Shown: positions 23,835 to 33,469 of the stretch, piece after piece | Layout: each line of letters begins with the position of its first letter | How positions within the stretch are numbered: the stretch's first letter is position 1 | Made by a program: the position numbers and the translations under genes | Notes under the pieces: model-generated | What the model was told of the DNA's origin: nothing | What the model saw: the letters and a program-made list of their open reading frames with translations, nothing else | Database searches by the model: none | From: Octopus vulgaris | Taxonomy: Eukaryota | Assembly (NCBI GenBank): GCA_951406725.2 | Contig: OX597837.1 | Coordinates: forward strand, 7,068,001-7,132,000 | Length of the DNA: 64,000 nt | Direction: 5' to 3'

Positions 23835-25275
23835 TGTCGTCGTCGTCGTTGTTGTTATTGTTGCTGTTGTTGTAGTTTCTTGTCATGCTGTTGTTAGCAG
23901 TCGTCGTAGTTGCCATTGCTATTTCGTTTTTGCTATTGTTGTTCGTTTCATTATTCATGCTGTTGTTGCTAATATTGTTATCAATATTGTTGCCGTTGTA
24001 CTTTTTGCCTTTGTTTTCGGGACTGTTTTTCTTGTCTTTATTAAATACGTCCACTTGTTATTGTTATTGTTGTTGCTAATATTATCATCTATGATGCTCT
24101 ATTTGACACTGTCTCCCTTTCTGTTGCTAATTGTTGTTATTTTTGTTGTTATTGCGTGTCGATATTGCTTATTGCCGCAGTCGTTGTTGCTAATTTTTGT
24201 TTTCTATTTTAGCAAAAGAAATTAAAATAACCATTGAAATTAGGCGTGGCATGCCTGGCCTAACAGCTTTGAGATACCAGTTCCATTTCACTGTCTTTTG
24301 GGATGTGTGTGGTGTGTGTGTGTGTTTGTATGTGTGTGTGTATGTGTGTATGTACCCGAATTAACGGACCTTTACGAAATAATTTAGGAAAAATCTATTT
24401 CATTTAAATCTCAAAGACACTTGTTGTTGGAGCGTAATATCCCCTAAAATGGCGGATTTTACAACCCCTCGACTGCACTTTATGCCCATTGTTGACAGGA
24501 AGATAATTCAGATCTCCTTTAGAGGAAAGCAATGGATTTTTCTTTCAGGAAATAGGAGAAAATATTGAGTTTTTCCAGTCCTTGGTCATGCAGAAGAGCG
24601 TAAACTGAGGGAACCTTTCTCCTGAAATTACTGCGTGTAAGTCCTGAGAATTATCTAGGAATACCATGGGACAGTGTAAGAACTACCCTAAAGAAAACTG
24701 AATTTGAATGACAGAATTCCCTTATTGAACTGGTGGATAATCTCAGCAATTGCCTATAAGCGTTTGTGGTGAGAGTTATATAGGCATACATTTTCCTGTT
24801 GCATTATGTGTTATTATCTAGACAAGTGTAGCTTACTTTATCACTAAGAGTTTCAAAAATTAGAGACATCAAAATTGAAAGGCTGATAAAACTAAGTTAG
24901 CTTCTAAACATTTCGGAAGCTGGGTGAGAGATCCTCTATATATCTATCAGAGGACAGGGATATTTTCAGTGCAGCCTGTGATGCATATAGATTGGGTAAG
25001 CCTCCATGTTTGATCAACTCAAAAGAATGTTATCCTTAGATTCATGAAAAGTAGGCCTCCTGTTCATCGACAGCTGAGGTGGATGACTTGGAACGTTTCT
25101 CAGGAAGTTCCCAGCTATGTTCGAGTTTCTATTTAGGAGGAGGAAATGTTACTTCCAGCGTGGGAGTATGTCTTCTGGATAGGTCAGAATGTTTGCATTG
25201 TCGGCTGGCAGAAGGCATCCAGTTGATGTTCGTACTGGTCCAAATAGTCGTTTCGCTTCAGCATACATATATATG

Positions 25276-25352
<77 letters not shown>

Positions 25353-25355
<3 letters not shown>

Positions 25356-25678
25356 ATATGATATATGAGGTTAATTTAAAATAAAATAACGATTTTTATC
25401 AAGTGGTCAGTATGGAAAAAAATAACCTTCAAAGGAAATAATTATTAAAATTATAAATTAGGGTATCTACGAAATACCACCATGCTGAAAATAGCAGCCA
25501 TGATCTGACTCTAAAACCACCTTAATTGTCCATATATCAACACGAAGAGAAAACAAAGAGACAAGATGAACCTAGGAAAAAATTACTGGATAATTCTAGA
25601 TCCTGGATTTCTGGCTTTACATTTAGTAATGCTTTGCCTCGTCAGTAGAACACACGCAGAAAAGAAACATAAATACAT
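25353..25678 (-). mobile_element. (TA)n-embedded HHR-bearing element
   Basis: About 325-bp block between two (TA)n tracts that contains the hammerhead at 25594-25650; layout similar to 34264-34856. Confidence 0.6.
25594..25650 (-). ncRNA. Type-I hammerhead ribozyme, near-canonical
   Basis: TTCTA-CTGACGA-GGC aaa GCATT acta AATGT aaa GCC-a-GAAA-TCC a GGA-TC-TAGAA. All three stems pair, the site is AUC, and there is one extra A before GAAA. Confidence 0.8.
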
Positions 25679-26701
25679 ATATATATATATATATAATATA
25701 TATATATATATATACAACATACGAATACTTACGTATACGAACGTATACCAATTCTCACTCGGTATGAGTTTGCTTAAGTCCCCCTTGTAACCCTTAGCGG
25801 CCCGGCAAAAGAGAACCGACAGAATAGGTAACTAATTTCTAAAACACAAACAACAATTTATTCAACTAAAACCACACTTTTAAATAGGTACCCCCGAAAT
25901 GGCTGCGGTCCCTTGACTGAAATACGTAATAGTATATATTATATAAAATGTAATAAGCACCCGCACAATTTCCATCTCACAAGTTGCTAGCTGACTCAAG
26001 AGTCTAGAAGAAACTTTTAGCCTAACACGTCTTGGATCGAGCACAAGAACAGATGGTTCTGAAGCGAACTTTGTAAGTGCACTGGCACTTTGGCGTTTAT
26101 TTGCTTGCTTGGTGTATATTTTTTTATTTGGTTTATATTTATTTTGTGTTTTAATATCTTTATTATTATGGTTTTGTTCTGTTTAATTTTTGTTTCTTAC
26201 ATTAAACGCTAATCAAGCATTTCCATTCAGTAAAATGTGTAAATTAGAGATAAAAATATTCAATCTTGTTTTCCTGTGTATTGCATGTTGTCAAGAGGTG
26301 ACGTGATAAAATAAACTAAAATAAAACAAAAGAAATACACTAAAATAGGAAGACATCTTTTTTTATATGAATTGTAGTTAAAACTTTATTTTTGTTTTTT
26401 TTTTGTTTTTTCTTCTAAATATGCTTTTACCTTTTATGATGAGAACTATTCATATATCTGTTTTTAATTTTTGTTATTTTTCATTCTATTTTTTTTTTTT
26501 TGGCATATTATCATCATTGTCTTCCATATAATTATACATACACAGATGCACACGTACACACACATGCATTCATACACACGCACAAACACACATATACATA
26601 AGCATAAATATACATACACATAATATAGATATATCCGTATATGTGTACATGTATACAAATATATACATATATATGTATATATCTATATATATAAATATGC
26701 A

Positions 26702-32581: not shown

Positions 32582-32601
32582 CTGATGAGCCATAGGCGAA
32601 A
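32582..32601 (+). ncRNA. Hammerhead core plus stem II only
   Basis: CTGATGA-GCC ata GGC-GAAA; no convincing stems I or III. Confidence 0.4.
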
Positions 32602-33469
32602 CCTGAAGAACCTTATGCATATATCAGATATATTGAATAAATTAACATAATCACTATGTGCAGCCTTCTTGCTCATTGAATGGAACAGCAGTTATGCATA
32701 CCAAAAGTTGACTTCCTATAGGCAAATATCTATATGTGTGTCTGATACACACAGACGTGCATGTCTGTGTGAATGTGTGCGTGTCTATGAGTGTGTGTGT
32801 GTTTGTGTATGCGTGCGACTGTATATGCATGTATATATGTATGTATCAACATACAAACTAATATTTGCTTATAGAAATATACATTGTATGATTGTATGTA
32901 TGCTTATGTAAACATATACATACATATATATATAAGTAATATATACATACATATATATATTATATACACACACACACGCACACACACACACACACATATA
33001 TATATATAATATTAGGGAGTATAACTCCAAACTTACAGGGGAAAATTCAATTTAGTATTAAATCAAATTTCACAATATAAATACATATACTTAAAAATCT
33101 ATATTTTTTTCTATCAATAAACATATAACCAATAAATAGATTTGTCCATTATTACTTACATAAGTATTATAGATATCTTTAGAAAAAATTTAGGCAATAC
33201 AATTAAAGAATTGAAGAATTTCAAATTAAAAACGTATAGCCTATCTTTATAAAATACTTATTATTACTATTATTAAAAACACTTTACGATCTAGATAGGA
33301 AAGTGACTAACTAATATCTTAAAATTTACATTCAGATATAATAATTAAATAAATGTACATATCTAAATTATCATTAACAAATAATAAAATTATAAATTCA
33401 TATTTAACAATCATTAGTTATATAGAGTACAATACTATTTCTTAAATAAAAAAGTTTACTTATCTCTCA

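Follow-up and report, generated by a model that had tools for sequence, protein, structure and literature searches.

A hammerhead-like motif on the minus strand of a 64,000-nucleotide stretch of Octopus vulgaris DNA (the window hereafter) raises the questions of what carries it, whether it can cut, and whether its host could have put it to use. The reading that we favour, and hold to be likely, is that it is a type I hammerhead in one truncated copy of a non-coding, dispersed repeat of about 490 nt with hundreds of copies. The family would be a non-autonomous, retrozyme-like Penelope-like element (PLE), copied in trans by an enzyme of the Hydra or Neptune clade, and its hammerhead is predicted to cleave only as a dimer.

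The motif and its predicted fold

A descriptor for type I hammerheads that tolerated an extra base 5' or 3' of stem II matched a single site in the 64-kb window, which is this motif, and block-shuffle controls gave one match in total from 30 shuffles (0.03 per shuffle). Its parts are the following.

25593..25651, minus strand: whole type I hammerhead motif (from the sequence, the descriptor scan and covariation)
25651-25646, minus strand: stem I, 5' strand (6 bp with the end G-U counted)
25639..25645, minus strand: core box C3-A9, CUGACGA (from the sequence and a 75-row count)
25613..25638, minus strand: whole stem II (3 bp, 3x3 internal loop, 5 bp, 4-nt loop)
25638-25636 with 25615-25613, minus strand: outer stem II, 3 bp
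25635-25633 opposite 25618-25616, minus strand: stem II internal loop, AAA versus AAA
25632-25628 with 25623-25619, minus strand: inner stem II, 5 bp including one G-U
25612, minus strand: extra A between C11.1 and G12, with no base opposite it after A9 in the subfamily of the window copy
25611-25609, minus strand: GAA
25600..25608, minus strand: self-complementary stem III, AUCC-A-GGAU, 4 bp around one base
25599, minus strand: C17
25599/25598, minus strand: predicted cleavage site after AUC, placed by hammerhead numbering
25598-25593, minus strand: stem I, 3' strand

The motif fits the core C3 U4 G5 A6 N7 G8 A9 / G12 A13 A14 A15.1 / U16.1 H17. The direct C11.1-G12 junction of the strict consensus is broken by one A, as it is in 502 of 502 pattern matches. 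An earlier note on this DNA had proposed a hammerhead with intact boxes, a bipartite stem II, a stem III of AUCC a GGAU and an AUC site, cut between 25599 and 25598. The sequence confirms these elements, descriptor and covariation agree with them, and the cut was rightly placed; the 5-bp stem I of that note is present, and reaches 6 bp once its end G-U is included. The Rfam model Hammerhead_1 gave a weak match on a 113-base stretch (11.8 bits against a gathering score of 34, E 4.4) that lies below threshold, and among the 150 matches listed in an Rfam scan of the whole window there were microsatellite-driven microRNA matches alone. Hammerhead-like decayed core boxes are also seen in the window at 32582-32610 (plus strand), 31736 (plus strand) and 31591 (minus strand); all fail the descriptor, one of them having a perfect 3-bp stem II and GAAA without a closing stem I.

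In the isolated 59-mer, stems I and II are predicted to pair with a probability of about 0.8 and stem III with one of 0.01-0.02. The value for stem I falls to 0.00 in three longer sequence contexts, and the folding energy of the motif is no better than that of shuffles (z -0.17). The three paired stems of the earlier note hold as a drawing, and fail as a prediction for stem III in the monomer and for stem I in the longer contexts. When two strands are folded together, the minimum-energy structure is predicted to be the hammerhead fold, and stem III (self-duplex -7.6 kcal/mol) is predicted to pair between two copies, not inside one. With a stem III that is short and palindromic and that pairs intermolecularly in these models, the motif is of the PLE (dimeric) type. 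The window hammerhead would probably cut just as a dimer with a second copy, an idea already raised in the earlier note and one that the palindrome, the two-strand prediction and covariation all favour. For PLE hammerheads, Cervera and de la Pena (2014, PMC4209133) reported that singles show no cleavage in vitro and that dimers have low activity. Eight of nine Xenopus PLE hammerhead dimers failed to cleave in published work, and one published PLE hammerhead required a protein for cleavage, with cleavage being dispensable for insertion.

A separate observation concerns the stem II variant carried by the majority of the family (e.g., L006:1716-1790, minus strand), whose 5' core box is complementary to the stem II 3' strand together with the extra A and G12. 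For this variant an alternative long hairpin is predicted that hides the core, an inactive fold; the window copy has the other variant.

A dispersed repeat with the layout of Penelope-like elements

The motif is embedded in a repeat copy, which is followed by a simple tract.

25355..25749, minus strand: 5'-truncated repeat copy, PLE-type and non-coding, that keeps about 390 nt of the roughly 490-nt dispersed unit (ends approximate)
25263..25354, no strand assigned: (TA)n tract adjoining the copy's 3' end, likely the insertion target (from the sequence; other copies mostly run into (TA)n too)

A genome search with 301 nt around the motif gave 2,596 first-look candidates, the best 40 of which were scored, at 91-95% and on many contigs; the best 30 scored copies have 92-95% identity over the 301 nt. 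Exact matches to the 3' half of the motif number 502 in the genome with an A before GAAA and none without it, and we therefore regard this A as a family trait. The family comes in two forms, with 266 matches carrying the lone A before GAAA and 101 carrying an additional A after A9. The sequence immediately 3' of the cut is held by 415 exact matches, and reversed-pattern controls gave 0 for all four counts. The copy in the window, which had been singled out earlier as the best-formed, turns out to be one of at least 502 and the most diverged of 30. It differs from the column majority of these 30 by 6.9%, compared with 1.3-4.6% for the remainder, bearing in mind that the comparison copies were picked as nearest to the window copy and that its final few bases are divergent. 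Its core is intact, and the four places in stems or loop 3 where it departs from the majority preserve pairing. There is no second copy in the window, as judged by self-BLAST, nor within 100 kb on either side.

Copies of the family are 5'-truncated, frequently with an inverted piece upstream, and terminate in (TA)n. At 19 of 30 loci with the unit's head, the unit's own tail lies directly upstream with no ORF in between. Same-strand pairs of copies were found at spacings of 482 and 495 bases, the first unit of the 482 pair being truncated within the hammerhead. Partial tandems occur among the examined loci, as do two near-dimers, and no long tandem arrays or multimers were seen there; in the window the copy is monomeric. 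Of 167 fragments, 64 have their 3' ends in one 10-base bin and 33 in another, forming two clusters separated by about 100 bases, in a set of loci that were in part selected on those ends. The family has the layout of Penelope-like element insertions, with 5' truncation, partial tandems, an adjacent inverted copy, a (TA)n target and alternative 3' ends; 5' truncation, inversion, partial tandems and (TA)n ends are described for PLEs by Craig et al. (2021, PMC8557442). This lone, aged copy would most likely be a passive insertion that rarely cuts. A look-up of sequencing runs listed none on record as RNA that contains the sequence. Contigs from four runs guessed to consist of RNA match the repeat at 85% likeness along its length; they carry no information on strand, level or ends, and possibly derive from other copies. 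The window copy is flanked by other repeats at 25740-25873 and 25040-25110, and contigs of all four runs accumulate on 25740-25873.

Conservation of stem II and of the core was assessed in 75 of 88 rows, 7 having been dropped as duplicates or as the other arm of an inverted pair and 6 for lack of a 5' half. At pair 2 of stem I, 59 distinct rows include 24 with U-A, 16 with C-G and 14 with A-U. Cells changed on both sides number 30 where shuffles give 8.6, with none of 500 shuffles reaching that number, and 96% of cells are paired, compared with 16-49% for slid partners. The two-sided change is confined to one stem I pair, and the counts of two-sided pairs and of pair types do not exceed those of shuffles (498 and 480 of 500). 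Stem II was counted on an anchor-based split, because MAFFT misaligned it between two subfamilies; among the 75 rows, one inner pair is A-T in 57 and T-A in 9, and stem II pair 2 exchanges G-U (42) and G-C (29). The internal loop is symmetric, AAA/AAA, in the window copy, as the earlier note had it, and this does not extend to the whole family, since many copies of the other subfamily read AGA/AAA.

Core position 7 varies among subfamilies (C in 38, T in 24, A in 12 and G in 1 of the 75 rows). The remaining core positions are kept in 71-75 of the 75 rows (73-75 for the six others of the C3-A9 box), with C17 in all of them, and the extra A before GAAA is likewise present in 75 of 75, among which are 30 loci chosen by a pattern containing that A. 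Across subfamilies about 20-25% apart, C3-G8, G5, A6, A9, GAAA, U16.1 and C17 are kept, and N7 changes. Comparison of these sequences points to a stem I that closes the motif and is backed by covariation, in one column with three pair types. The signal is thin but clear, and suggests that the RNA fold was selected in master copies, on the strength of few events (one stem I and one stem II column, in related subfamilies).

The additional base and the question of cleavage

If the predicted site is cut, copies might be expected to start there. Among the 415 copies, 23 are without C17, and by eye these comprise 15 with 5' ends at the cut (in 13 independent places), 7 with point or one-base changes and 1 with an internal deletion. 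The first 100 copies listed have about 15-18 breakpoints spread across 24 positions upstream; at that rate roughly 5-7 starts at the cut would be expected, and 13 independent starts correspond to a Poisson p of 0.002-0.03, a figure that A/T microhomology may inflate. Most copies read through the predicted cut site, and none of 96 secondary fragments starts there. When such starts were sought with a strict three-position test, 3 matches resulted, but A/T microhomology makes this test too strict. The copy-end signal for cleavage at the predicted site is, as far as these sequences indicate, mixed.

The single A before GAAA had been described earlier as an insertion in this motif. It is present, and it is not peculiar to the copy, being fixed in the family and having published precedent. 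In File S2 of Craig et al. (2021, PMC8557442), which lists PLE hammerheads as canonical, stem II is flanked by a non-pairing base on each side in 17 of 34 rows by our own count (U.U in 14, U.C in 1, C.A in 2), and in 17 of 34 stem III consists of 4 bp enclosing a single base. Since rows with facing bases are tabulated there, the form with an A on both sides is already known. In that source the extra 3' base always faces a base after A9, and it is this 5' base that the window subfamily has lost. In the GAAA column of Fig S3 of Cervera and de la Pena (2014, PMC4209133), AGAAA occurs in 1 of 56 rows, by row order the Cotesia bracovirus PLE, and the Hydra row carries a U before GAAA; the consensus given by these authors has an unpaired base at stem II on the 5' side only, whereas the window subfamily has it on the 3' side alone and the other subfamily on both. 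The unopposed 3' base is absent from both of these tables, and among the papers searched we found no printed description of it. Nor did we find an octopus hammerhead family there beyond the Octopus bimaculoides family that is part of the Hydra-clade set of Craig et al. (2021, PMC8557442), and the main text of an octopus repeat-annotation paper (PMC13282606) mentions neither ribozyme nor hammerhead. The lone 3' base without a facing partner, shared by the window subfamily and a young Hydra element, is thus a small variant for which no description was found in print.

The hammerhead of this Hydra-type element lacks a base after A9; its stem II is interrupted, and 4 bp enclosing one base make up its stem III. 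Its pattern has 5,913 matches, with a lone base before GAAA in 100 of the 100 listed. Many of its copies carry U4C, and the lone base may be U, C, A or G. When 728 kb of fetched sequence was scanned under relaxed settings, a base before GAAA was found in about ten unrelated repeats, compared with 0.33 per shuffle. Further unrelated type I hammerhead-like motifs lie at L146:8926 (plus strand), L137:8921 (plus strand), L143:8049 (minus strand), L094:946 (minus strand), L003:246 (plus strand), L044:2387 (minus strand) and L112:447 (minus strand), with C.A, A.A or A.G mismatches at the foot of stem II and a palindromic stem III.

A bolder proposal, which we offer tentatively and consider rather doubtful, is that the hammerhead core stays catalytically competent with one unopposed base placed between C11.1 and G12. 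This form would have arisen here at least twice from the Hydra-type form with mismatched 10.1/11.1, and would drive both a circular-RNA retrozyme of about 490 nt and a currently expanding Hydra element with thousands of copies, a class that standard hammerhead descriptors would miss.

The opposite may be argued from the same base, namely that the family spreads as we propose with a hammerhead that is dead or nearly so, the lone A having ruined the active site and the fold being retained as a binding site for a PLE protein. G12 is the general base of the hammerhead, and the extra base adjoins it. One step further on, a U between G12 and A13 abolished cleavage by a viroid hammerhead (PMC3907566). 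PLE insertion in vitro is undiminished by hammerhead mutants, and the weak, mixed signal of copy starts at the cut is also in keeping with a dead ribozyme. However, such a loss of function is at odds with a core in which N7 alone changes between subfamilies that far apart, and with the same lone base in a Hydra element that is young and expanding. Moreover, some natural core insertions remain active, U13a being an example (PMC3088659). We judge a dead hammerhead to be improbable.

Helper elements, host context and meaning

The favoured reading, a non-autonomous unit copied in trans, calls for a helper. No ORF with RT and GIY-YIG lies inside the unit, between its tail and its head, and an autonomous element with this very hammerhead was not found among the loci examined. 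Two young autonomous PLEs of the same genome, both having this kind of extra base ahead of GAAA, were compared with the unit as candidate helpers. One is a very young PLE with a Neptune-type ORF (L032:3799-6810, plus strand; L039-L068) that has RT and GIY-YIG, DKG, GLKF and a CxxxxxxCxxC-type linker, and of whose C-terminal 175 aa 150 of 150 scored matches are 100% identical. Its 3' UTR holds a U4C hammerhead about 500 nt past the stop, with a U on both sides of stem II, at 29 of 30 loci. The other is a young Hydra-clade PLE (L157:1936-9680, minus strand, at G000:C1 57.21 Mb; also L158, L149-L156 and L114) in 2.58-kb tandem units, with intact 717-aa frames and RWK, DKT and CxCX5C motifs. In DNA, the unit shows no similarity to either of these two families beyond TA-rich stretches. 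Both elements are thus no more than candidate helpers; the architecture leans towards Hydra. The Neptune ORF in L032 sits inside a TA tract between two inverted copies of the unit; as a parent of the unit it was rejected, having its own 3' UTR with no similarity to the unit.

The copies could instead be what is left of an autonomous PLE not found here, namely solo pseudo-LTRs or pieces of 3' UTR. It is published that 5'-truncated PLE copies often retain nothing but the terminal repeat, and the genome search scored only the best 40 of its 2,596 candidates. Against this, the unit's tail joins its own head without an ORF at 19 of the 30 junction loci, no sense PLE ORF adjoins the hammerhead in the fetched loci, and tblastn with both the Hydra-type and the Neptune-type helper proteins left the window copy unmatched and hit scattered neighbours alone. 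To our mind, remnants of this kind have a small chance of being the explanation.

For the unit copied in trans, we infer the following course. Tandem or circular RNA from master copies would be cut at AUC when two hammerheads pair via their palindromic stem III, and the PLE endonuclease would nick a (TA)n target. RT would then initiate internally on the RNA, with a preference for two A/T-rich positions that lie about 155 and 255 nt past the cut, and such starts would give rise to truncated copies or to copies of more than unit length.

Parts of this scheme resemble known systems. With the Hydra-clade PLE hammerheads of Craig et al. (2021, PMC8557442) the family shares the type I order, a position on the sense strand near the 3' end, the extra base before GAA, the 4-bp stem III around one base and insertion into (TA)n. 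It differs in that stem II is a simple hairpin in those PLEs and has a 3x3 internal loop here, and in that those hammerheads belong to ORF-bearing elements whereas the window unit is without an ORF. With the minimal or variant PLE hammerheads of Cervera and de la Pena (2014, PMC4209133) it shares a short palindromic stem III, which implies cleavage as a dimer, as well as G10.1-C11.1 and many dispersed singles, some of them closely spaced in opposite orientation. Animal non-LTR retrozymes (Cervera and de la Pena 2020, PMC7229834; Li, Clavereau and Pollet 2026, 10.64898/2026.07.22.740005) are likewise non-coding units of low GC with one type I hammerhead, occur as dispersed monomers and dimers, and are proposed to be mobilised by PLEs. 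The examples described there are 220-390 nt long, whereas the unit here has about 490 nt and was not seen in long tandem arrays, and they carry canonical hammerheads with contacts between loop 1 and loop 2, whereas the window family is of the PLE type and known from genomic DNA. Finally, the Poseidon element PAc of Anolis (Frangieh et al. 2024, PMC11167929) has two internal RT starts in vitro and A/T-rich targets, comparable to the two classes of 3' ends found here; PAc is autonomous and of another clade, and its starts are 30-40 nt apart as compared with about 100 in the window family.

As to the host, Pfam was run on the 150 longest of 508 filtered ORFs from the window and 100 kb on each side, and gave transposon domains and, as the sole non-transposon match above cut-off among these 150, one ADAMTS-like ORF. 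It lies about 26 kb to the left of the window (L136:2176-4182, minus strand) and, as a single long ORF, encodes 668 aa that begin like a signal peptide and include an ADAMTS cysteine-rich domain. Zinc-binding histidines, which are expected in ADAMTS-type proteases, are not evident, and the product is therefore possibly a non-catalytic relative; an AG immediately before the first Met makes a long 5' intron possible. An intronic ribozyme adopted by the host, as the earlier note had envisaged, could draw on this same-strand ORF about 51 kb downstream of the motif, on the intact core and on the four differences from the majority that are compatible with pairing. However, these differences are G-U/G-C transitions at the rate expected of decay in the most diverged of 30 copies, stem III is not predicted in the monomer, no partner copy lies within 100 kb, and lone PLE hammerheads did not cleave in vitro (PMC4209133). 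The proposed cutting of a host pre-mRNA is thus not supported. Such cleavage by the lone copy in the window is unlikely, and its adoption by the host very unlikely, because the copy is likely of a known type of jumping element and would probably cut only with a second copy.

That the resemblance to a hammerhead arose by chance is scarcely credible, since the Rfam score below threshold and the folding z-score near zero are set against 0.03 matches per shuffled window and are overridden by the family alignment, with its three-way compensatory change and core variation at N7 alone.

A single locus such as this one carries little weight, being an aged solo copy, and PLE hammerheads are found by the thousand in animal genomes. 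The family as a whole would be a cephalopod-type addition to the examples of non-autonomous PLEs and retrozymes. The lone base before G12 offers a cheap probe of how much the hammerhead core tolerates beside its general base, and, if hammerheads with such a base are active, search descriptors should allow an optional base before GAAA.
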